DNA from: Ginglymostoma cirratum
Lineage: Eukaryota
Reading direction: 5' to 3'
Assembly: GCA_024137785.1 (NCBI GenBank)
Contig: JAHRHZ010000112.1
Location: 43,442,288 to 43,506,287 of the forward strand
Length of the DNA stretch: 64,000 nucleotides
Shown: piece after piece, positions 993 through 63,692 of the stretch
Layout: the number at the start of each line of letters is the position of its first letter
Numbering within the stretch: the first letter of the stretch is position 1
Made by a program: the position numbers and the translations under genes
Notes under the pieces: generated by a model
Told to the model about the DNA's origin: nothing
The model's input: the letters and a program-made list of their open reading frames with translations, nothing else
Databases searched by the model: none

Positions 993-1156
993 GGTTGTTG
1001 AGGTTGGTTGGCTCGCCGAGCTGGTTTGTTGTTTTGCAGACGTTTCGTTACCATGCTTGGTACGTCAACGAAACATCTGCAAAACCACAAACCAGCTCAG
1101 CGAGCCAACCAACCTCAACAACCCACAACCCGAGCTACAGATCTACTCCAAAACCT
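993..1156. mobile_element. Fold-back PLE-derived insert (family C) inside CR1
   Basis: Arms about 993-1049 and 1068-1123 are reverse complements ending inward at GAAAC[G/A]TCTGC. The right arm has an extra ~33-nt tail. Imperfect TSD taaagatatgaaggtt (981-996) / tagagatattaaggtt (1157-1172). Confidence 0.7.
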
Positions 1157-1294
1157 TAGAGATATTAAGGTTCTAGTCAAGAATAAGAAAGAATCATAAA
1201 TTAGATATAGACAACTGGGAGCAAATGAATCTCTTAAAGAGTATAAAGAGTTTATGGCCATTCTTTAGAGGGAACCAGGAAGGCAAAGAGTTGA

Positions 1295-1390
1295 GATAAC
1301 AAGCATGGGGCTGGATGAACACAGCAGGTCAAGCAGCATCATAGGAGCAGGAAAACTTGACGTTTCGGGCCTAAACCCTTCATCAGAAAT
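1295..1390 (-). mobile_element. Short solo PLE pseudo-LTR insert (family A) with hammerhead-like core
   Basis: Same sequence family as the 3' end of the PLE at 54.3 kb. TSD gcaaagagttga at 1283-1294 / 1391-1402. Minus strand reads TTT-CTGATGA-A-GGGTTTAGGCCC-GAAAC-GTC-AAG. Confidence 0.85.
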
Positions 1391-2379
1391 GCAAAGAGTT
1401 GATATGAGATAGCTGTAGCAGATAAGGTTAAGAATAATCCAGAAAGATTCTACAAATACATTATGAGCAAAAGAGCAACTAGAGAGAGAATAGGGCCCCT
1501 TAAAGATGAACAAGGTCATCAATGTGTTGAACTTCAGGAGATTGAGGGGATGCCAAGTGAATATTTTGCATCAGCTGTTACTGTGGTGAAAGAAATGGAG
1601 GCTAGAGAACTCAGGGAAATAAATACTGATGTTTTAAAAACTGTTCATATTACAGAAAAGGAAGTGCTGGATGTCTTAGAAAACATTAAAATTGGATAAA
1701 CCTCTGGGATCTGATCAAGTGTGTCCCAGGATGTTGTGGGAAGTTAGGGAAGAAACTGCAGGGCCTCTAGCAGAAATATCTGTGTTGTCTATAACCACGG
1801 GTGAGGTGCCGGAGGACTGGATGGTGGTTGATGGTGTGCCGCTATTTAAGAAAGGCAGCAAGGAGAAGCCTGGGAACTATAGACTTGTGAGCCTGACACT
1901 TGTGTTGGGTATATTGTTGGAGGTGATTCTGAAAGGTAGGATTTATATGCATTTGGAGATGCAAGGAATGATTAGGGATAGTCAACATGGTTTTGTGTGA
2001 GGGAAATCATGTCCCTCAAACTTGACTGAGGTTTTTAAGAAGTAACCAAAATGATTGATGAGGGCAGAGCGGTAGACATTGTGCTGTTCTGGTTGCCCTG
2101 CTATAAGAAGGATATTATTAAATTGGAGAGGGCACAGAAAAGATTTATCAGGATGTTGCCGAGAATGGAGGGTTTGATATATAAAAATAGGCTGGGACTT
2201 TTTCATAGAGTGTAGGAGGTTGAGGGATGACCTTTTCAAGGTTTATCAATCTTGAGGGGCATAGATACGGTGAATAACAAGGGTCTTTTCCATAGGGTAG
2301 GGGTGTTCAAAACTAGGGAGCATATTTTTAAGGCGACAGGAGCAAGATTTAGAAAGGACAGGAGGGTGAGGTGAGACTG

Positions 2380-3514
2380 ACAGCCCTTAAAATCAAGGCT
2401 CCACAATCGAGTGTGGCATCAAGGATCCATGGCAAAACTGAAATCCGCGGGTATTGAGACAAATTCTCCTGGAGTCATACCTGACACATAGGAAGATGTT
2501 GTAGCTTTGGGAGGTCGGTTATCTCAGCTCCAGGACATCTCTGCAGGAGTTCCTCAGGGTAGTGTCCTCGGCCCAACCATCTTTAGCTGCTTCATCAATA
2601 ACCCTCCCTCCATCATAAGGTCAGAAGTGGGGATGTTCACCGATGATTGCACAATGTTCAGCACCATTCGTGACTTCTCAGGTACTGACGTAGTCCATGT
2701 TCAAATGCAGCAAGATAATATCCAATTCTGGGCTGATAAGTGGCAAGTACCATTCACATCACACAAATGCCAGGCAATGACCATCTCCAATGAGAGACAA
2801 TCTAAGATTAAACCCTTGACATTCAATGGTTTTAACAGCACTGAATCCCCGACTGTCAACATCCTGACAGTTACCATTGACCAGAAACTGAACTGGACTC
2901 ACCATATAAATACAGCACCTACAAGAGCAGGTCAGAGGCTAGGAATCTTGCAGCAAGTAACTCATCTCCTGACTCCCCAAAGCCTGTCTACCACTTACAA
3001 AGCACGAGTCAGGAGTGTGATGGAATACTCCCCACTTGCCTGGATGGCTGCAGATCCAACAACACTCAAGAAGTTGACACCATTCAGGATGAAGCAACCT
3101 GCTTGATCCATAAACTTTCACTCTTTTCACCAACAACGCACAGTAATGGCAGTGTTTATCATCTACAAAATGTACTTCACAGCTTTAGCAAGGCTCCTGA
3201 GTTAGCACCTTTCAAACACACAATCAGTTCCACCCAGAACGAAAGGGCAGCAGATACCTGGGAACATCAACATCTTCAAGTTGCTCTCCAAGCCACTCAC
3301 CATCCTGACATGGAAATATATCGCTGTTCCTTCACTGTCGCTGGGTCAAAATCCTGGAATTCCCTCTGCAACAGCATTGTACATGTATCTACATCAAATT
3401 AGCTGCAGAAGTTCAAGCAGGCAGCTCACCACCATCTTCTCAAAGGGCAGCTAGGGACAGGCAGTAAATAATGACCCAGTCAGTGTTACCCACATCCCAT
3501 GAGCGAATAAAAAA
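2380..3514 (+). mobile_element. CR1-clade LINE (second family), RT C-terminal half plus 3' UTR ending in an A-tail
   Basis: GVPQGSVLGPT..MFTDD..WADKWQV..YKARVRSVMEYSPLAW; 3' end cccacatcccatgagcgaataaaaaa. Confidence 0.88.
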
Positions 3515-3559
3515 GTAAATTAATTACTTTGGAAGTGTAGTCACTAACACTCTCAACTG

Positions 3560-6092: not shown

Positions 6093-6178
6093 TCAAAACC
6101 TCTGTTTTACACTCCAAATATGGCGCTGATGTGATCAAAACTCTCACACCTAATACACTATGGCAGGTCAGGATTTTC

Positions 6179-6386
6179 ATATGAATAAAACCAAGCTCTG
6201 TGGATGCTGGAAATCTGACAGAAATTGCTGGTAAAGTGAACAAGCCTGGTAGTATCTGTGGACAGAAAACAGAGTTAATATTTTGTGCCCAGTGACTCTT
6301 TATCCCTGACCGAAACATTAACTCTGCTTTCTTTCCACAGATGCTGCCAGACCTGATGAGCTTCTCCAGCTATTTCTGCTTTTGAT
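6179..6386. mobile_element. Fold-back PLE-derived insert (family B), centre collapsed
   Basis: Inverted arms (..gtggacagaaaacagagttaat / attaactctgctttctttccacagatgctgccagacctg..), tail on left arm only. TSD tcaggattttc at 6168-6178 / 6387-6397. Confidence 0.78.
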
Positions 6387-8039: not shown

Positions 8040-9630
8040 CTAAGAATCCTTAGTTTCAGGAAAAATCCCAAAAGATTGGACAACTGCCAATATAACACTT
8101 TTATTCAAAAAGGGAGGGGTCAAAAAAATAGATAATTATAAACCAGTTAACTTACCGTCTGCCATTGGGAGAGTGCTAGAGTCCATTGTAATAGCAGAGC
8201 CTTTTAAAATACATGATATGATCATGCAGAGTCAGCCTGGTTTCACAAAGAGTAAGTCAGAACAAAACAATTTATTACAAATCCTTGAGGAGGTAACACG
8301 CAGGCGTGATAAAGGGGAATCGATAGATGTCATATATTTCCAAAAGGTGTTCGATAAGATACCCCTTATAAAGTTACTTAATAAGCGTCCATGGTATTGG
8401 GAGTAATACATTAACACGGATAGATGATTGGCTAACTCATAGATGACGGAGAGTTGGAATAAATGGGGCATTTTCAGGGTGACAACGGTAACTTGTGGAG
8501 TACCACAGGGAGATAGCAAGAACTGCTAATGCTGGAGCCTGAGACAACACAGTGTGGACCTGGAGGAACACAGCAGGTCAGGCAGCATCAGAGGAGCAGG
8601 AAAGTTGACAGTTTGGGCCTAGACCCTTCATGAGGATGTCATCAAGGCCCGAAACATCAGCTCTCCTGCTGCCTGACCTGGAGTACCACATGGATCAGTG
8701 CTGGGGCCACAATTATTTTCTATATATTTTGACATGGATGGAGGAAGTGAATGTACCATTGCCAGTCTGCAGTGAAACAAAAATAGCTGAAAATGCAAGT
8801 AGTGAGGATGACATAAAGAGTCTACAGAGGGGTGACAGACAGGTTAAGTGAATGGGCAGAAACTTGGCAGATGGAATATGATGTGGGAAATGTGAGGTTA
8901 TGCACTTTGGCAGGAAGAACAGAAAAGTTGAATTTTGTTCAAATGAGGAATGACTAGTGAAAGCTGCCGAGCAGAGGAATTTGGGGTAGTTGTCACAAAA
9001 AGCTAGCATGCAAGTTCAGACCATAATAGAGAAGACAGATTGACTTTTATTGCAAAGGGAATGAAGTATACAAATAGTCAGCTCTTGCTGAAACTATGCA
9101 AGGCTCTAATCAGGCCACAGTTGGAATACATTGAACAGTTTTGGTCCCTTTATGCAAGGAAAGCTTCACTGATTTTGGAGGCAGTCCAGAGAAGGTTCAC
9201 TAGGTTGATTCCTGATATGAAGGGACTGTCTTTTGAGATGAGGTTCAGTACGTTGGGCTTGTAGCCATGAGCACAGGCCTTATTGAAACATAAAAGGCTA
9301 TAAGGAAGCTTGACATCATTGATTCAGAGATGTTGCTTCCCCTTGTGGGAGAATCTAAGACCAATGGGCATAATCTCAGAGTAAGGGATCATCCATTTAA
9401 GGCAGAGATGAGAAGTATTATTTTCCCTCAGAGGGTAGTGAATCTGAGGAATTTTTTACCATAAAGGGCTGTCGAGGCTGGGTTCTTAAGTACATTTGAG
9501 GCTGTGTCGTTAAGTATACTCAAGGCTGAGATAGATTTTTAATCAGCAAGGGAATCAAGTATTATGGTAATAAGGTAGGAGAGGGCAGTTCAAATTATTA
9601 TATCAGCCATGATCTAATTGAAAGGCAGAA
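8040..9630 (+). mobile_element. CR1 LINE RT remnant split by a PLE insert
   Basis: SQPGFTKSKS..YFQKVFDKIP; GVPQG motif duplicated around the insert; LIRPQLEYIEQFWS..VQRRFTRLIP. Confidence 0.88.
8511..8678. mobile_element. Older family A fold-back PLE insert in the CR1 GVPQG codons
   Basis: TSD tggagtaccaca[g/t]gg at 8496-8510 / 8679-8693. Left arm carries the tail; short right arm aggcccgaaacatcagctctcctgct. Confidence 0.8.
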
Positions 9631-14859: not shown

Positions 14860-14962
14860 AAAGTGTTTCTCTCTACATAGATGCTGCCAGACTTGCTGAA
14901 TGTTTCCAGCACTTTCTGTTTTAATTCAGATTTCCAGCATCCAAGGTATTTCACTTTTATTC
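14860..14962 (+). mobile_element. Family B PLE 3' end fragment
   Basis: agatgctgccagacttgctgaatgtttccagcactttctg..cagatttccagcatc matches other family B arms plus tail. Confidence 0.7.
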
Positions 14963-16491
14963 AGGAATAAGAATGGTTACTTCAGGCCATCATGTCATCA
15001 GCTATTACCAAACACATATAATCTGCTCTTTTATCAATTTAACATAACACACTCAATCTCCTAATGAAGTAAAAGTTTCTTGCACTTTTCTAAAGTTATG
15101 TCAAGTGCAGCTGCAGAGAGTGCAGCTAACCCTATCTCTTCACTTGTTGCCTTCCCTGCTATTACATATTTACGATCTCAGCTACGGGAGTCTTATGTTT
15201 CACAGACCATTCAATCATTCTTACCTACACCTGACCTTTTAATTCTGAGTAGTAGCTACAGTATAAAGATATGTTTATTCAGGTTCTTGGAAGATGTTAA
15301 TTGACACAATTTCAATTGGTTTTGTTAGAAGTGGATAAAATTCAGGATTGATGTCAAAATAAAAGCCCTTACAATCTTGTCATTGTACCATAAGTAAAAT
15401 GAGTTTCAAATGCCATTGAGAAATGGCTTTGTGTTAGTTATTTGGACATCAGTTCTTCCTGCCTAAGGATATGATGCAGTGACAGCACATCATCAGAACC
15501 CCTCAGAAAGGTTAATGGAGTCACCCTAGTCCTCACAAACATGAACAAGGTGCCTGCAGTTCTGAAATGAGCTGTCTTTTTCAGTCAGACAGAAATCATT
15601 ACTCCAACAATACTAGATGACACTAATTCATTTTCTAGGATACCTAGGGTCATGTTGTCCTTTCAAAGGAAATTCTAATTATCCAGTTTTATGACAAATA
15701 AGAATAAGAAGTGTTGATATGCAGTAAGTTACTGTGAAAAATAAGTATTTTAAAGGGGCTGTGGCCATTATTTGGGCCTAAAACAGGTATCGAGTGTTAC
15801 TTTTGACTAGTTGAGGTCACAATGAAAGATACATTTGCAAACTGGAACCTCAGATTGGTTGTCACTGATCATATATGTCTTGTTCACTGTTTACCCAAGA
15901 TTCATCCCAAGTGTTGCCCAAAGATGTGTCCATAATTAGAACAACTTTTGCAAAATATTTTTGGAGTGGAAATAACATAAAATGTGACTACTTATTCAAA
16001 GATCAATTTTTCATCAATTTATTTTTGAAGGAGGGGAGTAAAAATACTCTTGAACCGCAAAGGACAGTGGCTAGAATCCTGTCCAGAAGGAAGCAGTAAG
16101 TCAGAGTGGGATGCTAGGCCATTCCGGTAACTTGTTAGACTTGGGGCTAGATTTTGCTAGCAACAGTCCTGTTAAAGATGACACTGACTGCAGGAGCTGC
16201 CATGCCAATCAAAGTGCTGGCAATGCCACTGTTAACTGTGGTTGTTGATAGGGTTGTACCCGGAAGATGATGGAGCATCATTGGCCATGTGCCCTTGAAG
16301 ACAGGTAAATGGGTGTGCCAGTATCAAACAGAAACAGTAAAGCCGGGTGGTGGTGGGGGGCAGTGTTACTGAGAACAGGGAGTGCAGATGCCATGGGGTC
16401 AGTCATTGCCACCAGGGGACTCCTGCACAGGCTGAAGAATGCTCAGAAAGAAGACCCCACCCATGTGCACTGGAAGAACACCATTGTTTAC

Positions 16492-16678
16492 CTCAATAAA
16501 AGCAAAATACGGCAGATGCTGGAAATCTGAAATGAAACAGGAGCTGCAGGAGAATCTCAGCAGCATTGTCTAACATGAGTTCTGAAGCAGTCACATCAGA
16601 CTCAAAAACGTTAACTGATTCCCTCCTCATGGAAACTGCTAGATCTGCTGAGTTTCTGCTGCATTCTCTGCTTTTAAA
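16492..16678. mobile_element. Fold-back family B PLE insert with decayed hammerhead-like core
   Basis: TSD accattgtttac at 16480-16491 / 16679-16690; GAGTT-CTGAAGCA..AAAACGTT-AACT. Confidence 0.78.
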
Positions 16679-17779
16679 ACCATTGTTTACACAGAGTCCT
16701 GTCCATCCCAGGATGGGGTTCTTGGTGTGTGAGCTAGTTATCATATTCCTCTGGTATTGTAGCTTCTCCCTCCACATTTCTAACCATCCCTCCTTTGTTT
16801 ATTCACACATTTCTATCTATTGTTTACTATGTTGGTCTTCACATTAAGGGCAGTTCTTCAAGCTGATGATTTGTGCGGAAACTCTACCACGTTGACCACT
16901 TTGTGGGGACTCGACAATAGCTGGTATCGATATAATGCTTTTAACCAAAAGAAGCATCACAAGATATTTCACAGAGCCTCAATCACACGTGCCAAAACAA
17001 CATTTTAGGCTAATTATAATTAGCGTTGTAGTGGGGTGGTGACTAAAAGCTTGACAAATGCAGTGAGTTTTGACGAGGATTTAAAAAAAAACCAGGGGCA
17101 AGGGCCGGCAAAGGGGAAGGGTTTAGTTTGGAATTCCTGAGCCTTGGCTCAGAACTGTCAAAGGAATAGCTGCCAATAATCAGGTAAAGGCAGGGAACTG
17201 AATGGCAGCTCAGAGTTTAAGGTCAGACTGAAGGTCAGACAGTTGGGAAAGGGAGCAACAAACTATTACAAGATAATATTGAGACAGGGAAGCACACGAG
17301 GCCATGAGAAGATTTAAACATGGACATTTAAAACTTGACATTTTAAGCATTATGAGGACAAGGTAGAAAGGTGGGGGAGGGGTATAGGATGAAGAGGGTG
17401 AAGAGCAAGGTGATTGCCGAGGGAACAAAAGGGGTAGGATTGAGGGGGTGAGGGAGTAAAAGGTTGGGGTTGAGGGTATAGGGGATTAGGAATGAGGTTG
17501 CATGGAGTGTTAAATTGATCTGAAGGACTGGGTTGATGTTTCTGTGAATTGAGACAAGCCTTTTAGCTTGGAATTGCTTTAGAATTGGCCTGCTTCTCTC
17601 TCCACCTCTGTCACTACCTTCCTGGGAATGACAATAGCCCCTTTTCACACAACTGAGATAGATTCTGACTATCCACCTCCAATGGGAAATTTCTGGTCCT
17701 AATGTTAAAAGACAATGTAATAATATAAAACTTTTGAGTGCTGAGGCAAGGTGTCATCTGTATATGAGAAATGTCCTCA

Positions 17780-18355
17780 GTTCTGATGAAGGTAATTAAG
17801 CTGAACTGTTAATTCTGTTGGAGGAATACAGCAGGCCAGGCAGCATCAGGGAAACAGGAAAGCTGAAGTTTTGGGTTGGGACCATTCTTCAGAAAAATTT
17901 TTCCTGTTTCTCTGATGCTGCCGGGCTTGCTGTGTTCCTCCAGCTCCACATTGTGTTATGAAAACCAAAAGAACTGCGGATGCTGTAAATCAGAAACAAA
18001 AACAAAATTGCTGGAAAAGCTCAACAGGTCTGGCAGCATCTGTGAAGGAGAAAAAAGAGTTAATGTTTCAGGTCCAGTGACCCTTCCTCATAACAGTTCT
18101 GAGGAAGGGTCACCACACCCGAAACGTTAACTCTGTTTTCTCCTTCACAGTTGCTGCCAGACCTGCCAAGCTTTTCCAGCAACTTTGTTTTTGTTCCACA
18201 CTGTGTTATCTCTGATTCCAGCACTGGCAGTTCTTACTACCTCTGTTAATTCTGTTTCTCTTTCCACTGATGCTGCCAGATCTGGCTGAGTATTTGCAGC
18301 AGTTTCTGTTCTTGTTTCAGATTTCTAGCATCCACAGCAGTTTTGCTATTTTATT
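17780..18355. mobile_element. Triple-nested PLE-derived inserts (family B inside family A inside older family B)
   Basis: Outer TSD ctgttaattctgtt at 17806-17819 / 18243-18256; inner TSD tccaca[t/c]tgtgttat at 17945-17959 / 18195-18209. Confidence 0.82.
18095..18132 (+). ncRNA. Minimal type I hammerhead ribozyme-like motif (family B)
   Basis: AGTT-CTGAGGA-A-GGGT(caccac)ACCC-GAAAC-GTT-AACT: helix I AGTT/AACT, CUGANGA core, 4-bp helix II, GAAA, loopless palindromic helix III. Confidence 0.6.
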
Positions 18356-19449
18356 CATGTCTATGTCTGTGAGTGAGAATGCCAAGGTGAAGAAATAGAA
18401 GAAACCAAGGTCAGATTGTTCAACCATTCCAGATTTAATTCCAGAAAAGCAATTGTGAGATATAATTGGACATGTAAGATGTCAAGTGAGGTCAGTCAGC
18501 TGATATCAATTCCCAGGGAACTGGACCAAAAAGGAAAGGCATTTGATGAGGATGGAACGATTTGGTATTTGATGTGAAAGGGTGCGGTGAGGTTTCAGAA
18601 GCAAAGGGAGAAGTGAGGAACAATGCCCCATGGTCAGAGTCACAATGGACGTTATTTCTTATTTTGGCAAGGATTGTTTTTGTACTGTAGCAGGAATGTA
18701 AACCAGATTAGAGACATTCAAACACAATGGTTGCATGAAAGGGGAACAGAAAGGGAAACAACATGTTCAAGAACTTTGGGAAATAAATGAATGTTAGTTT
18801 ACAAAGGTAGTGGCTCAATCTTGACTATTTTTAAGGGAAAAATAGATAGCTTCTGCTTTGAAAGGCACGGTACAGTACTGAAAGAGGAAGAATCATCATT
18901 GGAAGGCCATTGGTTTAAGGGGAGTAGAGTCAAAGAATTTGGAGGTGAATCTCAAAATTAAAATGAGATCAGAGAAGATGTGAATGAAAATAAGAGAGAA
19001 ACTAATGAAAGATTCAGGCTCATCTTTCCAATAAATTAAAACAGGGAGAAGTTTTCACCGTTACAGATGATCACAGATCTATATCAATGCCTACTTCCCA
19101 TATTAAACTCAATTTACAAATGGATAGTCTAGTAGCAATGGAAACTAATGAAACCTAGCTTCTACAATTCAGCAGGAGTGAGCACTGTAAATTGATCACA
19201 ATGAGTTTTGCTCACCATACGATTCTTATAATGCAAAACATTATCTTTGACTATGAAAACAACTGAAGCAATCTGCTTAACTGTTTCATGCTAGAGCACA
19301 CCTGTGATGCACTTTAAAACTAGTTTCCCAGTGAAAGTTGCATCCAATTTATTTGGCTGTTGTACAGTGATTCTGTGGCAGTCATGGCTCATGCCTTGAA
19401 ATGTTATCTTCCAATCTCCCCCTACCTGACAAAACCCAATTATAATCTA

Positions 19450-20088: not shown

Positions 20089-20109
20089 ACCTAGTATTTC
20101 TTCAGAAAA

Positions 20110-23185: not shown

Positions 23186-23390
23186 ATAGAATCGCAGAAT
23201 CCTTACAGGGCAGATAGACCCTCAGAAAAGCATGCTACACTATCCCCATAAGCCCCATAGCTGCACATTTCCCATGGCTAATCCACCCAGCCTGCACATC
23301 CCTGGACATTATGGGCAATTTCCCATGGCCAATCCACGCTAACCTGCACATCTTTGCACTGTGGGAGGGAACCAGAGCACCCAGCAGAGG
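23186..23390 (-). mobile_element. HE1-type V-SINE, 5'-truncated
   Basis: catagaatc tail; ccaatccac..aacctgcacatctttg.actgtgggagg V-domain. Confidence 0.75.
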
Positions 23391-23536
23391 ACAATATTTA
23401 CATTGTTAGTAAGTAAAAACAATGACTGTTGATATTTGAGATAAAAGGTACTGCAGATGCTGGAGAATCCGAGATAACAAGGTGTGGGGCTGGATGAACA
23501 CAGCAGGCCAAGCAGCATCATAGGAGCAGGAAAACT

Positions 23537-23565
23537 TGACGTTTCGGGCCTAGACCCTTCATCAG
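23537..23565 (-). ncRNA. Hammerhead ribozyme-like core, sense in DNMT3A pre-mRNA
   Basis: CTGATGA-A-GGGT(CTAG)GCCC-GAAAC-GTCA. Confidence 0.6.
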
Positions 23566-23871
23566 AAATGGGGGAGGGGAAGAGGGTTCTGAAATAAATA
23601 GGGAGAGGGGGGAGGCGGATAGAGGATGGATAGAGGAGAGGATAGGTGAAGCCTCTTTTCAGGATGCCTACCCTGAAGAAGTTACCCTCCTCCCTCCGGA
23701 CAAACCTCAGGGAATCTCTCTCCCACTGCAACTCTCTCATAATCTCTTCGGCCTTGAAACTGCTCTTCGACTTGTCTGCCTCCTCTCCACCTATCCTCTC
23801 CTCTATCCATCCTCTATCCGCCTCCCCCTCTCTCCCTATTTATTTCAGAACCCTCTTCCGCTCCCCCATTT

Positions 23872-23900
23872 CTGATGAAGGGTCTAGGCCCGAAACGTCA
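23872..23900 (+). ncRNA. Hammerhead ribozyme-like core (mirror arm)
   Basis: CTGATGA-A-GGGT(CTAG)GCCC-GAAAC-GTCA. Confidence 0.6.
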
Positions 23901-24612
23901 AGCTTTCCTGCTCCTATGATGCTGCTTGGCCTGCTGTGTTCATCCAGCCCCACGCCTTGTTATCTCGGACTGTTGATATTTGGTGGATGAATGAAAAACC
24001 TCATAGATCGTCTAATTTTTTTTGACTCAGAGCATGATATAAATGAACCTGAAACATGGGCTGCACATATAAATGGCTTGTAGGACTTTTGATAAAACAT
24101 GATGGTTTCATACAGAAGCTACACATGAATAAACTGTGAGCATATGTATAATCATGTCTTTTATATCTCGATTAATAACAATGAATGAACTTTATCACGA
24201 TAAAAGTAACAAGTTTGTCCCCTAACATAATGTGAAAGTTAGAGAATTTACTTTATTAAAAAAACGTATGTCTGTGCATTATCAGTGCATGAAGGAACAG
24301 AAAAGTTTAAAATAATGTTACAAACATCACGTTTTAAATGTTTGTGATATGAATTCAGGGATTTCATTTGACTGCAGTTCTTAGCAAACTGTTATATTGT
24401 AGATAATGGGATGTTTACTGAATCCACTTTCATCTACTCTGCCTGGAACCATCCATAATGCATTATTGAGTAGATAGGGAGTGACATAAACATTCTGATG
24501 GAAAAGCTGTTTCGCAAAGTGTCATGCAATAGGGAACAGTGCTCCAAGGAAACTCACTGCCATGTACATAGAAACATTTACGTAAGATATAAGATAAAAG
24601 AAAGGATATTAC

Positions 24613-26772: not shown

Positions 26773-27363
26773 GAGATAGTAGGAACTGCAGATGCTGGAG
26801 AATCTGAGATAACAAGGTGTAGAGCTGGATGAACACAGCAGGCCAAGCAGCATCAGAGGAGCAGAAGGCTGACGTTTCAGGCCTNNNNNNNNNNNNNNNN
26901 NNNNNNNNNNNNNNNNNNNNNNNNNNNNNNNNNNNNNNNNNNNNNNNNNNNNNNNNNNNNNNNNNNNNNNNNNNNNNNNNNNNNNNNNNNNNNNNNNNNN
27001 NNNNNNNNNNNNNNNNNNNNNNNNNNNNNNNNNNNNNNNNNNNNNNNNNNNNNNNNNNNNNNNNNNNNNNNNNNNNNNNNNNNNNNNNNNNNNNNNNNNN
27101 NNNNNNNNNNNNNNNNNNNNNNNNNNNNNNNNNNNNNNNNNNNNNNNNNNNNNNNNNNNNNNNNNNNNNNNNNNNNNNNNNNNNNNNNNNNNNNNNNNNN
27201 NNNNNNNNNNNNNNNNNNNNNNNNNNNNNNNNNNNNNNNNNNNNNNNNNNNNNNNNNNNNNNNNNNNNNNNNNNNNNNNNNNNNAGGCCTGAAACGCCAG
27301 CTTTCCTGCTCCTCTGATGCTGCTTGGCCTGCTGTGTTCATCCAGCTCTACACCTTGTTATCT
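26773..27363. mobile_element. Fold-back family A PLE insert with central 400-N gap
   Basis: Perfect 16-bp TSD cataaaatttatatca at 26757-26772 / 27364-27379. Inverted arms flank the gap at 26885-27284; tail on left arm only. Confidence 0.9.
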
Positions 27364-37950: not shown

Positions 37951-38276
37951 GATCATAGATCATAGAATCCCTACAGTGTGGAAACAGGCCCTTCGGCCCT
38001 AAAAGTCCACACCCACCCTCAGAGCATCCCACCCAAATCCATTCCCCCTATAACCCACTTAATCTACATATCCCTGAACACTACAGGCAATTTAGCGTGG
38101 CCAATCCCCCGAGCCTGCACATCTTTGGACTGTGGGAGGAAACCAGAGCACCCGGAGGAAATCCACACAGACATGGGGAGAATGTGCAAACTCCACACGG
38201 ACAGTCGCCCGAGGGTGGAATCGAACCCGTTCCTGACGCTGTGAGGCAGCAGGGCTAACCACTGAGCCACTATGCT
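37951..38276 (-). mobile_element. Near full-length HE1-type V-SINE
   Basis: tRNA head gtggctcagtggttagc, B box gggttcgattcc, V-core gtggagtttgcacattctcccc, and CR1-derived tail gggccgaagggcctgtttccacactgtagggattctatg. Confidence 0.9.
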
Positions 38277-45583: not shown

Positions 45584-45683
45584 TTCTGAGGAAGAGTCAC
45601 CGGACCCGAAACGTTAACACTGATTTCTCTTCACAGATGCTGCTAGACCTGCTGAGCTTTTCCAGAAATTTCTGTTTTTGTTT
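45584..45683 (+). mobile_element. Solo family B PLE end starting at the hammerhead-like core
   Basis: TT-CTGAGGA-AGAGTCACCGGACCC-GAAAC-GTT-AAC followed by the family B arm. Confidence 0.75.
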
Positions 45684-46307
45684 GTGTGTGTGTGGACCGT
45701 AATTGGCTTGGTCCCACCACTGCCTCATGAGTAGTCTCTGTTACTTTGACGCCACGCTAGTAAAAGCATTTGGGAGTCAGTAATGTGTGAGGGAACGAAT
45801 CCAACGTCTAACCTTCAATCTCACTCTGTAATCAGTCTAACAGAACCGCCTTATGGAGCCCTTTAACTGCATTCCAGATTTACACTGCATGTCAGGCTCT
45901 AGTAAAAACCACGTATTTGGAATGAGCATGTTTATTAGCCTTCCCTCCTGTGACCTGACGCAACCTCAGATTTGTAATAGCAGTGCACTTTGCTGATGGT
46001 GATATGCCAGAAATAACGCAACACCACTTTTCATGTCATGACAAAGCCTGGACCTGAAATGTGAGCTAATCCAATCGACTCAGTTGAATCAAGTTCAGGC
46101 AATCCTAAACATTGCCAAAGTAACAACTTGGTAGCTGCAAATTCCTTTTGAAAATCCCTCAGTTCTTGCTTTAAGAAAGTGCAGGAACCTAATATTTGAG
46201 AAGCCAGGGGATATTTAAGATTGCTCTGACCCTTGTGTATAATCTAATCACACTTCATTTGTACATGTAAATTTGTTTGCCCTTCAGACTCAACAGAAAG
46301 GCACTTG

Positions 46308-46395
46308 AAATTAAAACCGAAAATGCTGCTAAAACTCAGCAGGTCTGGCAGCTTTTGTGGACAGAAAACCAGAGCGACAACTCTTACTCAGAACT
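46308..46395 (-). mobile_element. Family B PLE arm fragment
   Basis: aaatgctgctaaaactcagcaggtctggcagc..acagaaaaccagag. Confidence 0.6.
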
Positions 46396-47958: not shown

Positions 47959-48098
47959 GAAATAACAAGGTGTGGAGCTGGATGAACACAGCAGGCCCAG
48001 CTGCATCATAGGAGCAGGAAAGCTTGACGTTTCGGGCCTGGACCCTTCATCACCTTGTTATCTCAGATTCTCCAGCATCTGCAGTACCTATTATCTCT
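47959..48098. mobile_element. Collapsed fold-back family A PLE insert
   Basis: TSD taaata[c/t]agacatta at 47944-47958 / 48099-48113. The left arm runs to the hammerhead core, then jumps to the last ~12 nt of the right arm plus tail. Confidence 0.85.
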
Positions 48099-54090: not shown

Positions 54091-54275
54091 CTTCTAAAAG
54101 CTTTTGGAATATATTTTGTCATTTAAAATCAGCTTATATACAAATGGTAAATTTACTGATTAAAAATGCTAATTTTCTGTTATAAGCCCATTACCAGTTG
54201 TTTAAACAAATGATCCCAAACTGTTATTTTGACATGCATTGTGATGACCAGGTATGAGGAAGGGTGAATTGACTC

Positions 54276-55566
54276 AGAGATAACAAGGCGTAGAGCTGGA
54301 TGAACACAGCAGGCCAGGCAGCATCAAAGGAGCAGGAAAGCTGACATTTCGGGCCTAGACCATTCTTCAGAAATGGGGGAGGGGAAGGGGGTTCTGAAAT
54401 AAATAGGGAGGGGGGGGAAGCGGATAGAAGAAGGAGAAGATAGGTGGAGAGGAGACTGACAGGTCAAAGAGGTGGGGATGGAGCCAGTAAAGGTGAGTGT
54501 AGGTGGGGAGTTAGGGAGGAGATAGGTCAGTCCAGGGAGGACGGACAGGTCAAGGGGGCAGGATGAGGTTAGTAGGTAGGAGATGGGGGTGGGGCTTGAG
54601 GTGGGAGGAGGGGATTGGTGGGAGGAAGGACAGGTTAGGGAGGCAGGGACGGGCTGGGATGGATTTGGGATGCGGTAGGGGGAGGGGAGATTTTGAAGCT
54701 TGTGAAGTCCACATTGATACCATTGGGCTGCAGGGTTCCCAAGCGGAATATGAGTTGCTGTTCCTGTAACCTTCCGGTGGCATCTTTGTGGCAATGCAGG
54801 AGGCCCAGGATGGACGTATCATCTGAGGAATGGGAGGGGGAGTTGAAATGGTTCGCGACTGGGAGGTGCAATTGTTTGTTGTGAACCGAGCGTAGGTGTT
54901 CTGCAAAGCGGTCCACAAGCCTCCGCTTGGTTTCCCCGATGTGGAGGAGGCCACAACGGGTACAGCGGATACAGTATACCACATTAGCAGATGTGCAGGT
55001 GAACATCTGCTTGATGTGGAAAGTCTTCTTGGGGCCTGGGATTGGGGTGAGGGAGGAGGTGTGGGGGCAGGTGTAGCACTTCCTGCGGCTGCAGGGAAAA
55101 GTGCCGGGTGTGGTGGGGCTGGTGAGGAGTGTGGAGCGGACAAGGGAGTCATGGAGAGAGTGGTCCCTCTGGAAAGCAGACAAGGGTGGGGAGGGAAAAA
55201 TGTCTTTGGTGGTGGGGTCGGATTGCAGATGGTGGAAGAGTCAGAGGATGATGCATTGGATCCGGAGGTTGGTGGAGTGCTACGTGAGGACGAGGGGGAT
55301 TCTGTTTTGGTTGTTATTGCAGGGACGGGGTGTGAGGGATGAGTTGCGGGAAATGCGGGAGACACGGTCGAGGGCGTTCTCGACCACTGAGTGGGGGAAG
55401 TTGCGGTCCTTGAAAAACGAGGACATCTGAGATGTACGGGAGTGGAATGCCTCATCCTGGGAGCAGATGCGGCGGAGGCAAAGGAATTGGGAATAGGGGA
55501 TAGCATTTTTGCAGGAGGGTAGGTGGGAGGAGGTGTATTCTAGGTAGCTGTGGGAGTCGGTGGGCT
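54276..55566 (-). mobile_element. Penelope-like element (Neptune-type), 5'-truncated: RT C-terminus, Cys/His linker, GIY-YIG endonuclease, 3' UTR/pseudo-LTR
   Basis: One reading frame from 55570 to 54635 with a single in-frame TAG at 55280-82: FKPTDSHSYLEY..IPYSQFLCLRRICS..PCSRRKCYTCPH..VVYCIRCTRCGLLHIGET..RFAEH..PNGIN. Hammerhead-like core at 54342-54370; TSD tgaattgac at 54265-73 / 55567-75. Confidence 0.93.
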
Positions 55567-56081
55567 TGAATTGACACCCCACTTTTTAAATACTCAGTCG
55601 GTCACAACAAAGACTTTTAATTTTTGTTCACATGCTGCTATATTACAGTCATAACCACAACATAATATAGGAGCCAACTGCAAGATTTTCTTAGTGAAAG
55701 AAAGTGATTTTATTCCTGACATTCAAGGAAAATTTAGAATGTACCATCCAACATACATACATAAACACAGACATAAAGTTTATAAAGGGCAGAGTGTCTG
55801 GTACAATTGAAAGAAAAATAACATAAAATTATAAAAGTTCTTTGATTTCTCGAGACGTAATAGTTGTATCTGAAACCAAGGCTGTTTAACTGATGTATTG
55901 TATCCTTAGCAGTAGTGAAATTTATAGATCCTTAGGTTCTCACTGAATGGATGTCAAGCGAATTTATTTTATCACCGGCTCTGATACTCATGATGTGAGA
56001 GGGAAACAGAGATTGAAGGAGTCTTCCAGTATTTGCTGTTACCAATCCATTTTCTGGATCTCTCCCTCTGCCAACCAGCTA

Positions 56082-56174
56082 CTGATGAAGGGTCTATCCC
56101 CGAAACGTCAGCCTCCCTGCTCTTATGATGGTGCTTAGCCTGCTGTGTTCATCCAGCTCCACACCTTGTTATCT
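56082..56174 (+). mobile_element. Solo family A PLE end starting exactly at CTGATGA
   Basis: TSD cagctactga at 56076-85 / 56175-84 overlaps the CTGA; core CTGATGAAGGGTCTATCCCCGAAACGTCA. Confidence 0.85.
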
Positions 56175-56763
56175 CAGCTACTGAAATATGGTTCTTTTGT
56201 GTATTCCAAGCGCAGGTTCATTACAATTAGAACTAGAAAAAATCATTGTCATATATATTCAAATGAGTACAGTGAAAAGTCTATAAGTCACAAAGTTGTC
56301 ATTATCTGGACAACTTATTGGACAAGTGTAAATTGAAACAGGAGATGTGAGGTTCTAGATGCCTGAATCTGTTGCCTGGTTTCAGCAGCTTTCGCTAACA
56401 TGGTGCCTTTAGTTCAATTGATTTTATTTATTTCATATTGGCTTCCTAAACTTGAACAGACAGCAAGGTGATTGCCACAGCCATGTTTGCTCCATGTTTC
56501 CAACTTCCCAAAACTATTTTAGTCCTTGAAGTCTCAGATATTAAAATCAGAGAATGATAGTCTGAAATGTACTATTATGATAATTTTTTAAAGTGGAGTT
56601 TTATAAGAAGTTTTGAAATCTGCTGAATTAGCATGTTTCATGGCAGATTTTCCATGTGGCAAATGCAAAAATATTTGAGTGGAAACACAAGAAAAAAACT
56701 TAACAAAAGAGGTGAAATTTGCATCAAGGACTATACTCAAAGTGGAATCTCAAAGCATCATAC

Positions 56764-56865
56764 TTCTGAGAAAGGGTCACCGGACCCGAAATGTTAACTC
56801 TGATTTCACTTCACAGATGCTGCCAGACCCGCTGTGCTTTTCCAGCAACTTCTGTTTTTGTTTCT
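56764..56865 (+). mobile_element. Solo family B PLE end
   Basis: TSD tacttctg at 56761-68 / 56866-73; core mutated (CTGAGAA..GAAATGTTAACTC). Confidence 0.78.
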
Positions 56866-58524
56866 TACTTCTGTTGTTGCAATTTGTCACAGATGTAAAG
56901 CAATCCTGAAATGTTAATTTATTCATTTTACCTCCCTAAACGGGAAAGCAAATCCACATCTTTGAAGATCCCTAACCAAGTAATTCAACTCAATTTATTT
57001 AACAATTCAACTTGGTGGCTTCAAAGTGACACAGCTCCTCCTGTGAAACTGAATCATACATTGTGCCTAGCATGGCTATAAGACCCTGCACATCATTCAT
57101 ACTGCAGAAAACCATACCATGCTTTATTCCTAATAAAATATAAAAGCTTGGAACTACTTACACTTTAGATGTCTCTCTTTGTCACACAGCAAATTTCTGG
57201 GACATACTAAAATAATGTTAAAAGAGGTATTAAAAATAGAACGGAAACCACACATTTCCTGTAAGTTTCAGAGAAACTGCTCCATTAACCTTCATGGTGT
57301 ACGAAACAGCAATGAACTTAAATGAACCTAAGGATGGTCTTACAGAAGAAATAAGACCTTGTAGATGGGATGGAGAATCTATTGCCTTTGGGCCATATGT
57401 AACCCATGAGTCTTGGCAATCTAGCCCTTTAATCACTTTGGATTTGATAAAGCCTAAATCATGGCACGTAAATTGCTGAGGATTCATAGCTTGAGATATA
57501 TGGACCACAGTAATACATGTGGCCTGTGAAGGTCTTTGGCATGCCACTAAGTGTCCCAAAATGGAAAAGTTTGAACATTCTTGGAGAACAGACAAAGTAC
57601 ACACAGGTTCACCCATAGCAGCAAAACAATACTGTGGCTGCAACATGGGCAAACAACACAATCTTTATTAATGACAGTATCCTCTCACTTACTGTGTGCA
57701 ATCCCATGTTTTACATCTATAATTCTGAAAATATTAAACAGTAAGTGCGCACACGTTTACTCTCCGTACTCCGTCACAATTCAGGTGTCACACTCTAGAT
57801 CTCACACTGTAGTCACTAATGTAAAATCACCTCTAACAAAGAGAAACAAAGCACACTTACTTAATTTTCAACGTTTCTAAGGTATTGTGTGATCTGGCAA
57901 GCACTTTCCAATCAGTAAACCGTTCCAACAATCCCCAATTACTGTTGCTTAGAAACAATCCTGAGAAAGCTTTCTCAGTGTGCATCTCCACATTTAACCC
58001 AATGTAAAAATGTTTCTTTAAATTAATTTTTCAATTTTTTTCTGAAATGGTTTATATTTGTACTTTTTCTTTTGCTCTCACCTCACCATCCAGTGGAAAT
58101 ATTCTCTGGCTGTTTACATTAATCCTCACAGCTTTGAAGAGTTCCATCAGACCAACCCTAATAGTCACAGTTTCATCAGAAAAAAGCTGTCAACTTCTTG
58201 CAAGTCCCAACTCTAGGACCTTCCCCGTGAACCTACATCTAAAATTTTTCCATTACGTTTATGTCCTTTTGATTAGTGCCCAAAACTATATGCAATGTTT
58301 TAATTTAATTATGATTATGCTATTATCCAAGTTCTGCATTGTACCCTTGTTTCTGTATTATTTTTTGTTTTTAATCAAGGATTAAATTAGCTATTTTATA
58401 ACCTTAATTAATTAAGTTGCAATATTTTTAAATCTTTTAACCTGCTCTTTAAGGTCACCATTGGTCTTGATTCTATTTGAAAGCTTATAGTGAAAGCATA
58501 TTCCTTTTGATTTGTCTGCCAAAT

Positions 58525-59233: not shown

Positions 59234-60514
59234 AGTAATTTGATTAGGGATAGTCAACACGGTTTTATGAAGGGTAGGTCGTGCCTCACAAACCTTATTG
59301 AGTTCTTTGAGAAGGTGACTGAACAGGTGGACGAGGGTAAAGCGCTGATGTGGTGTATATGGATTTCAATAAAGTGTTTGATAAGGTTCCCCACGGTAGG
59401 CTATTGCAGAAAATTCAGAGGCATGGGATTGAGGGTGATTTAGTGGTTTGGATCAGAAATTGGCTAGCTGGAAGAAGACAGAGGGTGGTGGTTGATGGGA
59501 AATGTTCATCCTGGAGTTCAGTTACTAGTGGTGTAACGCAAGGATCTGTTTTGGGGCCACTGCTCTTTGTCATTTTTATAAATGACCTGGATGAGGGCGT
59601 AGAAGGATGGGTTAGTAAATTTGCAGATGACACTAAAGTTGGTGGAGTTGTGGATAGTGCGGAAGGATGTTGCAGGTTACAGACGGACATAGATAAGCTG
59701 CAGAGCTGGGCTGAGAGGTGGCAAATGGAGTTTAATGCGGAAAAGTGTGAGGTGATTCACTTTGGAAGGAGGAACAGGAATACAGAGTACTGGGCTAATG
59801 GTAAGATTCTTGGTAGTGTGGACGAGCAGAGAGATCTCAGTGTCCATGCGCATAGATCCCTGAAAGTTGCCACCCAGGTTGACAGGGTTGTTAAGAAGGC
59901 GTACGATGTGTTAGGTTTTATCGGTAGAGGGATTGAGTTTCGGAGCCGTGAGGTCATGTTGCAGCTGTACAAAACTCTGGTGTGGCCGCACTTGGAGTAT
60001 TGCGTACAGTTCTGGTCTCCGCATTATAGGAAGGATGTGGAAGCATTGGAAAGGGTGCAGAGGAGATTTACCAGGATGTTGCCTGGTATGGAGGGAAGGT
60101 CTTATGAGGAAACACTGAGGGACTTGAGGCTGTTTTCGTTAGAGAGAAGAAGGTTAAGAGGTGACTTAATAGAGACATACAAGATGATCAGAGGATTGGA
60201 TAGGGTGGACTGTGAGAGTCTTTTTCCTCAGACGGTGATGGCTAGCACAAGGGGACATAGCTTTAAATTGAGGGGTGATAGATGTCAGAGGTAGATTCTT
60301 TACACAGAGAGTAGTAAGGGCATGGAATGCCTTGCCTGCAGCAATTCTAGACTTGCCAACTTTAAGGGCATTTAAATGGTCGTTGGATAAACATATGGAT
60401 GATAATGGAATAGTGTAGGTTAGATGGCCTTCAGATTGGTTTCACAGGTCGGCGCAACATCGAGGGCCGAAGGGCCTGTACTGCACTGTAATGTTCAATG
60501 TTCTATGTTCTATG
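59234..60514 (+). mobile_element. Young 5'-truncated CR1 (HER1-like) LINE with a 314-aa uninterrupted RT segment
   Basis: YMDFNKVFDKVPH..GVTQGSVLGPLLF..SKFADDTK..LEYCVQFWSP. The 3' end gggccgaagggcctgtactgcactgta..(ttctatg)n is shared with the HE1 SINE tail. Confidence 0.95.
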
Positions 60515-60589
60515 GTCTTGAAGTGACCAATTAGTGACCACATAATGGTCTCATCACACCCCGCTGTTATTAACCCATCTGCCTACCTC

Positions 60590-61100
60590 AGTAAGGAAGT
60601 GCTGAACTTGGAGGGGACCACAGGAAGTTTACAAGAATGATCCCGGAGAGGAAGGGCTTGTCATATGAGAAGTAATTGAGGACTCTGGGTCTGTACTTGA
60701 TGGAGTTCAGAAGGATGAGGGGAGGGTTCTCACTGAAACGTACAGAATACTGAAAGGCCTGGATAGAGTGAATATAGAGAAGATGTTTCCAGTATTAGGA
60801 GAGACTAGGACCTGAGGGCATAACCTCTGAGTGAAGGGATGACCCTTTAGAATTGAGATGAGGTGGAATTCCTTCAGCCAGAGGGTGGTGAATCTGTGGA
60901 ACTCACTGCCAGACAGGGCTGTGGAGGTCAAGCTCTTGAGTGTATTTAAGACAGAGATAGATAGATTCTTGATTAAAAAGGGGATCAAGGGTTATGGGGA
61001 GAAGGCATGAGAATGGGGTTGAAAAATATATCAAGCACGATTAAATGGTGGAGCAGACTCGATGGGCCGAAAGGTCTAATTCTGCTTCAATACCTTATGG
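60590..61100 (+). mobile_element. CR1 3' fragment
   Basis: gagggtggtgaatctgtggaactcactgcc; 3' UTR gatgggccgaaagg. Confidence 0.85.
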
Positions 61101-62984
61101 TATTTTGGCCTGTTACTATGTGGCATGCATGGCAGCTAATGCCATGCAACCAGCTTGTCGCCTCCAGGTGGGAGTGAGCCCCTGTCTTTGACGTTGACCC
61201 CTGTGCCTTGTCTCTCCACAATGCCCAACCACCAAACACCTCTCAACCCTCAGCCTGCAACATTATTCACCTGTGTCCTGAGTCATTCCGCAACCTAGAA
61301 TTCTAGAACCTTTGGTTCTGGCAGCAGCCGGGGGCTCAGCAGCGGCACTGCTCAACAGGTGCCAGCCTAGAATTGACATGCAATTCTCCATCCTGACACC
61401 TACTCAGAATGTGGATTGTACAGTCATAGCAAGTCCCTTGTCAACTCTCCAACTGGCAGGTGACACTTCCCCCCCCCTACCAATGATACAACAGGTTTCC
61501 ACCCAATATTTCTGCATATCATTATATGCGGTGATATTTCATCAATACTCTGCTTATTGATAGATGTCAACACTTTCTGGTTACTCTGAAAACTCTCCAA
61601 AATAATACATTTACTCAGAGATTGAATAGATAATGATATTCAAAAACTGTCTGTGACATTAGAGAAGTTTGTCCAAGTACATGTTTTGTGTGGAGGGAAT
61701 TAAATTAATCAATGTATGAACTAAACACATGCTTTCTATTTTTGAAAGGCGTATTGTCACAATAACAAAGCAGGTTGAGTAAATTAGTCACCCTCCACCC
61801 AACACTTACTGTAAACGATGACTTAATCCGGAATATGAAAAATGTTGAAGAAACATGCGAGTCTAGAAATTGCAATTTCCTGACCGCAGCATAAAGAGCA
61901 GACAATTAAGGAATAAAAAGTCACTACGGCCAATTCATAGCAGTGCCAATTTTCTGGTTAAAATTAATTTAAAATTAATGAGCATAAAATTGAGAAGACC
62001 ACAATCAGTCAGACAAACCTTCCTGTACTGTTGAATGGGACTCCAGTAAAGGGAATACTGACACACCAGACCTGAAATTCTTACAATTTCAGGGTTTTTT
62101 ATTTGAACAAAGAAAATAAGTTACCATCAAATATTTGATTCCTCCAACAAGGCTGCTCACATGATGGTGCTGAATAATAACCTTGTTGAAGTTTATGGTA
62201 TTCAATCAGACTTCTCGTCAGCACTTCAGTTAATTCTTACATTCATGCAAAATGGCATATTTAAGTGGTTACAAGAGAAGTGAGTTAGGTGATGTGCCAC
62301 AGTGTGACCCATTTCACCTTTGCCACCTGGAATTGAACGCCATTCAGACAGACGAGTCCTTTGGCTTATGTTGTAATCGAGCCTTAGTGAGATTATGTAA
62401 CACTAAGGTCTTTTAAAAATACACTTCACTTTTTCAAAGCCTGTTTATACTGCACTGAGAAAAGATCCTATTATAATAGTCAGTAACAGAGAACAGTGTT
62501 GCTGGGTTGTTGCAAGGTCCATTCACTATGGAACAGTATTATATGACACTTCAGAATACTGTATCCTGACATGATCACAATTAAATTCCCAAACGTCTCA
62601 TTAATTGTTATCATCTCTTCGGTTTTCTGCCTTCATACATGCAACTCTATGTGCTCCAATTCCAAGCCACGTCCAACTGCTATGTCTTTTGACTATCTAT
62701 AAAATTTCACTACAGCATCAAAAGTAACTGCAATGCTATTATCAGTTTCCTTGGACAGTGATTCCATGGGAGACACCTTACAGCAAAATTCCAAACCAAG
62801 CTAGCCAGCTGTTGTAAAGTGCATTACATTGTGTCACCTTCAGCAATGGTTGTGTTCCATCAAATTTGTGACCAATCATGTGTAGGACTAAAATGGCGTA
62901 AAGCTACCAATTTAGTAGTGGAACAGTCTCCAAATTAATATCAGCTGAAATATTACATTAAAAATAGTGCACCTGCTGAGACAG

Positions 62985-63692
62985 AGATAGTAGGAACTGC
63001 AGATGCTGGAGAATCTGAGATAACAAGGTGTAGAGCTGGATGAACACAGCAGGCCAAGCAGCATCCTGGGAGCAGGAAAGCTTGACGTTTCGGGCCTAGA
63101 CCCTTCGTCAGAAAAATGTTTCTGATGAAGGTTCCACACCATGTGTTCCCTTTTAAATTGTACTTCCTCTTCAGTGCAGAATTCCAGCATGTGATTGGTA
63201 GCAACAGATGAGAAAAGGCACCAGGAAGACTGAATAGACTGCCTAGCTAGTGNNNNNNNNNNNNNNNNNNNNNNNNNNNNNNNNNNNNNNNNNNNNNNNN
63301 NNNNNNNNNNNNNNNNNNNNNNNNNNNNNNNNNNNNNNNNNNNNNNNNNNNNNNNNNNNNNNNNNNNNNNNNNNNNNNNNNNNNNNNNNNNNNNNNNNNN
63401 NNNNNNNNNNNNNNNNNNNNNNNNNNNNNNNNNNNNNNNNNNNNNNNNNNNNNNNNNNNNNNNNNNNNNNNNNNNNNNNNNNNNNNNNNNNNNNNNNNNN
63501 NNNNNNNNNNNNNNNNNNNNNNNNNNNNNNNNNNNNNNNNNNNNNNNNNNNNNNNNNNNNNNNNNNNNNNNNNNNNNNNNNNNNNNNNNNNNNNNNNNNN
63601 NNNNNNNNNNNNNNNNNNNNNNNNNNNNNNNNNNNNNNNNNNNNNNNNNNNNGATGCTGCTTGGCCTGCTGTGTTCATCCAGCTCTACACCT
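62985..63692. mobile_element. Fold-back family A PLE insert with internal unique sequence and 400-N gap
   Basis: TSD cacctgctgag[a/t]cag at 62970-84 / 63693-707. Minus-strand core CTGACGA..GAAACGTCA at 63083-63111; gap at 63253-63652. Confidence 0.8.

Follow-up and report, generated by a model that had tools for sequence, protein, structure and literature searches.

What are the short, partly hammerhead-bearing inserts that recur along a 64,000-base stretch (hereafter the window; 63.2 kb of non-N sequence) of contig JAHRHZ010000112.1 from the shark Ginglymostoma cirratum? An earlier note on this DNA had described them as dispersed, non-coding derivatives of Penelope-like elements (PLEs), each inserted independently with its own target-site duplication (TSD), and had offered two readings: a true non-autonomous class, resembling retrozymes or miniature inverted-repeat transposable elements (MITEs), or stereotyped abortive products of an autonomous PLE. 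Our data fit the latter. Very probably, the inserts are dead-end products of autonomous, apparently Neptune-type PLEs, each built at its landing site. By their defining features they are neither retrozymes nor MITEs and belong with the known truncated and inverted PLE insertions; the element class is not new, and the same pattern has been published for PLEs in other animals.

Self-comparison and profile searches of the window recovered all 14 previously listed inserts at their places, together with three further family B remnants (Table 1) and an additional short B tail piece near 29451. TSDs were sought at 18 candidate inserts, in search windows that we placed around the homology ends, with a score of at least 8 as threshold. 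This score was reached by 14 of the 18 (13 of the listed 14, plus a PLE remnant); among 400 random position pairs, 5 attained it and a score of 9 was never attained. In the short inserts the TSDs measured 10–16 bp with 0–1 mismatch, and the 9 bp of the PLE remnant extends the overall range to 9–16 bp. Bounding by direct repeats was hence found at every listed insert except B45584, where no TSD was detected. The density amounts to 14 TSD-bounded inserts per 63.2 kb (non-N), with ~4.2 kb, or 6.6%, derived from PLEs. From TSD to TSD, nine inserts measured 89–235 bp, the longer ones being 17820 (423 bp, with 17960 inside), 23439 (529 bp) and a pair of 591 and 708 bp. The sizes of 90–700 bp given previously thus belong to real inserts, but this last pair each hold a 400-N gap (26885–27284 inside insert 26773, and 63253–63652 inside insert 62985), so that the lengths and centres given for both are provisional. 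At 26773, the same self-complementary hexamer at +15 (positions within arms are counted from hammerhead nucleotide C3 as +1) ends the contig on both sides of the gap, suggesting a palindrome of ~190 bp that was broken by the assembler; the true size is probably ~190 bp, with little or no sequence absent in the gap. Next to the gap of 62985 lie ~120 nt of non-PLE sequence (63130–63252), which may be captured DNA, a later insertion or a mis-assembly, and of which no second convincing copy was found within the window.

Insertion itself could be read from a related shark. Contigs of this relative (0.23 of words shared; three contig runs) were aligned to 53950–57159, and in two of the three runs one unbroken record aligned with 55544–56075 and then with 56175–56720. 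These records skip 56076–56174, i.e. the solo stub 56082 plus one TSD copy, and a single TSD copy remains, which is the empty orthologous site that the earlier note had proposed to look for; in the third run, the alignment of a record stopped at 56075. Contigs of the relative also ran into the PLE remnant at 54274–55566 from both flanks, suggesting that the remnant predates the split of the two sharks and that stub 56082 is younger. Moreover, 17960 is nested in the tail arm of 17820, itself nested in an older B arm, and in each of these two cases other copies of the host repeat have just one instance of the motif that is duplicated. These observations demonstrate insertion directly and, together with the TSDs, bear out the claim of independent, TSD-bounded retroposition products of a hammerhead-bearing pseudo-long terminal repeat (pLTR) end. 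They also bear on the reading that later deletions in the DNA removed the centres of longer inverted-repeat PLE insertions and left the stubs. Such deletion could account for the large internal loss in 23439, and a collapsed hairpin might have put the centres of 993, 6179 and probably 26773 where they lie, within stem II. However, 56082 apparently arose once the two sharks had separated, and it already has the form of a solo stub adjoining both TSD copies; random loss, moreover, would not repeatedly stop at –5 to +2, which makes later deletion very unlikely.

Family A arms end on their 3′ side at either ~+95 or ~+129, ~34 nt apart, and families B and C follow the same two-end pattern. Ten of the 14 listed inserts are two-armed inverted repeats, with the paired arms all on opposite strands. 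All ten are joined head-to-head and carry exactly one tail, an outcome with a probability of 0.001 if each arm chose its end freely (p=0.5), while the tail is absent from all four TSD-bounded single-arm inserts (1295, 54274, 56082 and 56764). This strict one-tail rule suggests that both ends of an insert are made in a coupled way. The nine readable junctions between arms are all distinct and consist of few-base overlaps, short fillers or self-complementary centres. At two independent A-arm ends (17893–17897 and 63112–63116) five A residues stand on the + strand, as compared with three in the PLE 3′ untranslated region (3′UTR), and the extra A might possibly be an untemplated addition to the complementary DNA (cDNA) end.

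This two-site geometry matches that of the PLE PAc from Anolis (Frangieh et al. 2024, PMC11167929). The anole protein cuts or nicks and extends both DNA strands, and reverse transcription is initiated within the RNA at two points that flank a ~34-nt tail (+85 to +119 of the AUG), with a minimum RNA reaching +172 and uncut RNA as the substrate; as in the shark, the start sites lie ~34 nt apart and ~90–130 nt after the hammerhead. In contrast, PAc belongs to the Poseidon type and has its AUG inside the hammerhead, whereas the shark element has a Neptune-type linker and an open reading frame (ORF) start elsewhere, and inverted products and a 5′ stop, as seen in the shark, are not studied in the accessible part of that work. 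By analogy, a first nick would prime reverse transcription at the no-tail site. For a solo stub, the free cDNA end would anneal to the target by a few bases; for a two-armed insert, the first cDNA would meet a second one, for which the other nick would serve as primer at the tail site. The hammerhead would be carried along uncut, and stubs without the downstream sequence that the anole protein needs would presumably be beyond further copying.

Palindromes might also arise by fold-back, in which a cDNA self-primes on a short self-complementary stretch and the GIY-YIG endonuclease trims or resolves the intermediate, which would fix the no-tail end and perhaps also the 5′ stop. Self-complementary motifs indeed occupy the centres of 26773, 17820 and 17960, young arms are 98–100% identical, and both self-priming and endonuclease resolution are published readings (PMC3846280; PMC8557442). 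ATT, the preferred cut of the anole enzyme (PMC11167929), occurs at –4 to –2 and also at the tail boundary of family A, and the route accounts directly for the one-tail rule. However, the tail arm of 47959 is only 48 nt long and its no-tail arm has sequence that the tail arm lacks, and the no-tail arm of 23439 likewise holds 3′UTR and ORF-start sequence missing from its tail arm, so that fold-back needs an extra one-sided deletion in each. In addition, both strands are extended by the anole protein in vitro, with starts at each of the two tail boundaries (PMC11167929). For the palindromes, fold-back is a live rival, possible if somewhat doubtful.

The hammerhead itself was present less widely than the description of the inserts as hammerhead-bearing had implied. 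The minimal type I pattern matched at nine places, corresponding to eight PLE arms and one stemless chance match; five arms passed a stem-pairing filter that 100 Markov controls passed 0.01 times on average. The eight core-bearing arms, from families A and B only, belong to six of the 14 listed inserts and the PLE remnant, whereas in the other inserts the core is mutated or cut off, and CUGANGA is absent from both arms of C993. No Rfam hammerhead family matched in the window, and Rfam matches below threshold to hairpins of microRNA type were dismissed as look-alikes. Ends defined by self-cleavage were considered and rejected, given that the arms contain the uncut core and stop upstream of it rather than at the cut site near +28 (the nearest ends being +32 in 17820 and those of two old fragments). 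Folding predicted a stem II probability of 0.00 in the whole palindromes 23439 and 17960, and of 0.24–1.0 in solo arms.

A parent could be assigned to family A, whose arms match the 3′ end of the PLE copy at 54.3–55.6 kb, as noted before, with an identity of 81–93%. That copy had been called the coding PLE; yet it holds just ~300 C-terminal codons, including the GIY-YIG region, followed by the 3′UTR and a hammerhead (C3 at 54370), and is thus a 5′-truncated remnant and not autonomous. Its frame 55240–54635 (– strand) is 90% identical to a protein of Rhincodon typus and 83% to one of Stegostoma tigrinum, which points to a carpet shark as the probable host, and the best-matching protein, P0001, aligns through amino acids 159–460 with 55570–54665 (302 codons, 89%). 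P0001 matches GIY-YIG at 23.2 bits (cut-off 22.6) and the reverse transcriptase (RT) domain RVT_1 at E 9e-5, whereas the window fragment by itself gave no Pfam match. A single ORF with RT and, at its C-terminus, a GIY-YIG endonuclease was accordingly found for the parent of family A only. Ahead of the endonuclease region, the same frame contains a C-x4-C-x2-C linker; a CX2-5CxxC zinc-finger-like linker between RT and endonuclease is named for Neptune and Nematis PLEs (PMC8557442), and our label Neptune-type is a provisional one drawn from this motif, which Nematis shares. Joints in the relative further point to internally deleted PLE bodies (55126 to 55341, 54406 to 54540, 54581 to 54679 and 55003 to 55153; summed depth ~100–800), which are possibly amplified deletion variants.

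The three families had been presented as separate, but the A and B profiles cross-match at E about 1e-7 to 1e-9, and judged by sequence the two are homologous pLTR families; for family C, a PLE origin is suggested by its anatomy. Nor are all inserts non-coding: 23439 holds the first 34 codons of a PLE ORF, the segment being 94% identical to amino acids 1–34 of P0123. Amino acids 93–153 of P0123 in turn match P0025, an RT-bearing ORF, at its N-terminus (E 1e-6; 122-protein set). The link from ORF start to RT-bearing ORF depends on P0123 and P0124; P0125 and P0126 had no domain match to the 122-protein set at the threshold used, and the centre of 23439 had no match among the first 122 proteins, being identified by direct search only. 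The fusion of ORF start to 3′UTR at 23664 could be an internal deletion or a template jump, and across 23652–23790 this young insert may represent a one-off jump or have been copied from an element with an internal deletion. Between solo stub 1295 and the arms of 23439, which extend into PLE 3′UTR and ORF start, identity is 96%, indicating a source subfamily common to short and longer forms.

On their 5′ side the inserts stop abruptly at the hammerhead edge. The furthest 5′ extent fell within –5 to +2 in nine of the 14 TSD-bounded inserts, as compared with a P of about 2e-7 under a uniform spread over 100 nt (family B lacks an upstream reference, and its ends were therefore set by the adjoining TSD or the opposite arm). 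In the contigs of the relative, summed depth dropped 3.2-, 2.0- and 3.1-fold in the three runs from the arm bin to the next, followed by a 1.6–1.9-fold drop over the subsequent 1.2 kb, and both A arm bins together reached 2.6–5.5 times the ORF bins; these depths are not copy numbers and serve as ratios only, with palindromes counted twice. An arm also ended at –6 to +1 in three of four head-to-head A/A joints (among 15 of 632 joints). Such a sharp stop suggests either a fixed RNA end or a cut site at the ribozyme. By our judgement, the favoured though tentative cause, and the least certain part of our explanation, is run-off: most cDNAs would have their priming site in the transcript's 5′ pLTR copy and would run off the 5′ end of the RNA at –5 to +2, making stubs the default product and leaving ORF-bearing copies to read-through tandem RNAs only. 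Endonuclease cutting at the ATT at –4 to –2 seems a lesser possibility, a pause of the RT is slightly less likely again, and other causes take up the remainder. In the literature outside Dfam, Repbase and most subscription journals, we found no account of a 5′ stop at the hammerhead edge and no paper on these shark stubs.

Several points weigh against the dead-end reading or its run-off component. Two of the nine stops (8511 and 16492) were read by eye, strict alignment giving 7 of 14, and the –5 to +2 interval was picked after seeing the data, so that the P of about 2e-7 is overstated. In D. virilis, the Penelope start site precedes a 75-nt intron by 46 nt (PMC2377424), and the end of that intron maps to helix I (PMC4209133), so that the RNA starts away from the hammerhead edge. 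The no-tail arms of 8511, 17820 and 62985 stop 10–40 nt before the canonical site. Given that the anole AUG lies in the hammerhead and the shark ORF starts elsewhere, the binding-site argument for sterile stubs is one of analogy only. The junction census comprises nine window junctions and 15 of 632 joints from contigs of another species. Furthermore, the largest loose-end pile among those shown in the relative lies before the 5′ end of B56764 (1475, 900 and 1508 records), with an agreement of 0.36–0.37 that indicates that most aligned B copies share no upstream body, and no coding partner for B or C was found in the window.

The last two points also speak, as regards family B, for an independently replicating non-autonomous class of retrozyme, short interspersed nuclear element (SINE) or MITE type, mobilised by PLE protein. 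Family B would be its best candidate, with a short master RNA beginning at the hammerhead. The copies do share a sharp 5′ end, solo stubs share both ends within a few bases, and precedents exist in putative non-autonomous PLEs of algae (PMC8557442) and in dispersed retrozyme monomers of vertebrates (Li et al. 2026, 10.64898/2026.07.22.740005). However, all nine readable junctions differ, albeit in a small sample, and among the 15 of 632 joints shown for the relative none was dominant, the best comprising 18 contigs of 139,455 records (X1); this is a rough version of the junction table proposed earlier, in that joints were partly uncounted in two runs and contigs merge identical copies and break at palindromes. 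No head-to-tail repeats of inserts or tandem hammerheads occur in the window, whose sole tandem repeat is an unrelated 14-bp one, and whole palindromes are predicted to lose stem II. Family A stubs are up to 96% identical to arms continuing into 3′UTR and ORF, the ends of the inserts coincide with the presumed RT start sites and lie upstream of what the anole protein needs, and the B loose-end pile is partly forced by the window's copy ending there. We consequently hold an independently replicating class to be improbable, though a low-copy short form, above all in family B, may exist. Hardly less improbable is a variant in which family B, and perhaps solo A stubs, have a source transcript of their own, short and ORF-less, beginning at the ribozyme and bearing a protein-binding signal past the tail, i.e. 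a PLE-dependent, SINE-like shark lineage with sterile daughter copies.

A class II MITE origin, with the arms as terminal inverted repeats of a DNA transposon, would fit the inverted-repeat shape, the short length and the TSDs, but is already contradicted and hardly credible: the TSDs vary from 9 to 16 bp, the ends are asymmetric by the ~34-nt tail, solo arms have TSDs as well, and an RT/GIY-YIG element has the arms as its 3′ end. Retrozymes likewise differ. Those of animals derive from PLE pLTRs, are defined as tandem (10.64898/2026.07.22.740005; also the review PMC7761336) and are present in the one chondrichthyan sampled in the former work. Non-LTR retrozymes resemble the shark inserts in being ORF-less and pLTR-derived, with a type I hammerhead and dispersed monomers (PMC7761336; 10.64898/2026.07.22.740005), yet they form head-to-tail tandems, self-cleaving dimers and circular RNA. 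The shark inserts are solo or head-to-head, without at least two head-to-tail units bearing a complete hammerhead, and their unit ends lie off the cleavage site.

The dead-end reading instead aligns the inserts with insertions of endonuclease-positive (EN+) PLEs, which show inverted pLTRs, a one-sided tail, TSDs, microhomology junctions and assembly gaps (PMC3846280; PMC8557442) and likewise combine head-to-head arms with strong 5′ truncation and internal deletions (Arkhipova et al. 2013; Craig et al. 2021). The tail is 30–40 bp there and ~34 nt in the shark, whereas the TSDs are 8–10 bp there as opposed to 9–16 bp. What distinguishes the shark copies is that nearly all are reduced to the pLTR tip (89–235 bp when fully sequenced, except 23439), and that their sharp 5′ stop is not described in the accessible parts of those papers. 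Minimal hammerheads with the same motif (an unpaired base after A9, no helix III and a palindromic core) were reported from metazoan PLEs by Cervera and de la Pena (2014, PMC4209133), mostly as single motifs "probably related to truncated PLEs", by the thousands in coelacanth and Xenopus, and in pairs on opposite strands, ~100–700 bp apart; the accessible part of that paper does not treat sharks or the TSDs, tails and junctions covered here. A PLE expansion has been described in whale shark introns (10.1101/443036).

The value of these inserts lies in providing a genomic read-out of the poorly understood integration mechanism of PLEs. If run-off is true, the prevalence of orphan stubs among minimal hammerheads would be accounted for, as would the dependence of PLEs on partial tandems for moving their ORF. 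If the short-transcript reading is true, thousands of orphan minimal hammerheads in animal genomes would be tied to one RNA end.

Table 1. PLE-derived features of the window (names in brackets are the starts used in the text where these differ).
Feature	Position	Strand or arms	TSD	Remarks
Family C two-armed insert (993)	997..1159	no-tail arm –, arm with ~35-nt tail +	13 bp, 984-996/1160-1172	both arms start within stem II, hence no CUGANGA; arms 54/57 identical; single window locus
Family A solo no-tail arm	1295..1387	–	1280-1294/1388-1402	intact minimal hammerhead; spans –5 to +94 (C3 at 1386)
Family B two-armed insert	6179..6386	tail arm –, no-tail arm +	11 bp, 6168-6178/6387-6397	centre within stem II
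Family A two-armed insert (8511)	8512..8678	tail arm –, short no-tail arm +	8496-8511/8679-8694	tail arm reaches core; no-tail arm lacks last ~40 nt; core decayed
Old family B fragment with tail	14862..14963	+	none found	outside earlier list
Old family B two-armed insert	16492..16675	short tail arm –, no-tail arm +	16477-16491/16676-16690	no-tail arm begins ~–4 (5′ end judged by eye)
Old family B arm with tail	17778..18357	+	none convincing	starts ~–5; outermost of three-level nest; outside earlier list
Family A two-armed insert	17820..18242		14 bp, 17806-17819/18243-18256	within old B arm; TSD is B-arm motif
Family B near-perfect palindrome	17960..18194		17945-17959/18195-18209	within tail arm of A17820; TSD is A-arm motif; arms 88/100 identical, both end ~–3; 1-nt centre; single tail
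Young family A two-armed insert	23439..23967	tail arm –, no-tail arm +	15 bp, 23424-23438/23968-23982	arms 180/184 identical; two intact hammerheads on opposite strands; tail arm enters PLE 3′UTR by ~85 nt, no-tail arm has ~105 nt of it
PLE ORF start, first 34 codons	23664..23765	+		joined directly to 3′UTR part of no-tail arm
Family A two-armed insert	26773..27363		16 bp, 26757-26772/27364-27379	400-N gap
Family B solo no-tail arm	45584..45683	+	none	starts –2; ends at short TG run
Old family B fragment	46306..46374	–	none	outside earlier list
Family A two-armed insert	47959..48098	no-tail arm –	47944-47958/48099-48113	no-tail arm ends +2 and joins 48-nt tail arm (+82 to +129) via 2-nt overlap
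5′-truncated Neptune-type PLE copy (putative type)	54274..55566	–	9 bp, 54265-54273/55567-55575	no-tail end
Family A solo no-tail arm (56082)	56086..56174	+	10 bp, 56076-56085/56175-56184	+1 to +97; each end overlaps TSD by 3–4 nt
Family B solo no-tail arm (56764)	56769..56862	+	56758-56768/56863-56873	starts –2; G8A change in core; 5′ end overlaps TSD by 5 nt
Family A two-armed insert	62985..63692	tail arm –	62970-62984/63693-63707	tail arm to ~–5, inverted arm from –3, ~120 nt non-PLE, 400-N gap, remaining no-tail arm

Some inserts lie within or against others. B17960 lies in an A arm ~5 nt ahead of the no-tail end (window 17778–18357), and in the relative three of the 15 joints shown connect an A 3′ end to B (56174/56177 to 56764, and 56175 to 56863), with 1–8 contigs per run and in both orientations. 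Landing of stub into stub near the tail boundary might reflect an endonuclease hot spot in the element's own DNA. Scans with exact family A patterns gave no match in viral contigs and none in metagenome contigs.

Other repeats share the window. RVT_1 matches mark RT fragments of long interspersed nuclear element (LINE) type at 2492–3106, 8044–8406 and 59341–60294. An inverted pair at 33077–33214/34629–34765, 1.4 kb apart, was considered as a further PLE family and set aside, having no PLE-protein match and a translation resembling LINE RT. A separate dispersed repeat (71–90% identity) occurs at 23279–23382, 29245–29435, 37964–38273 and 53091–53279, with one copy ~60 bp before insert 23439; it may be akin to the shark SINE HE1, which it resembles.

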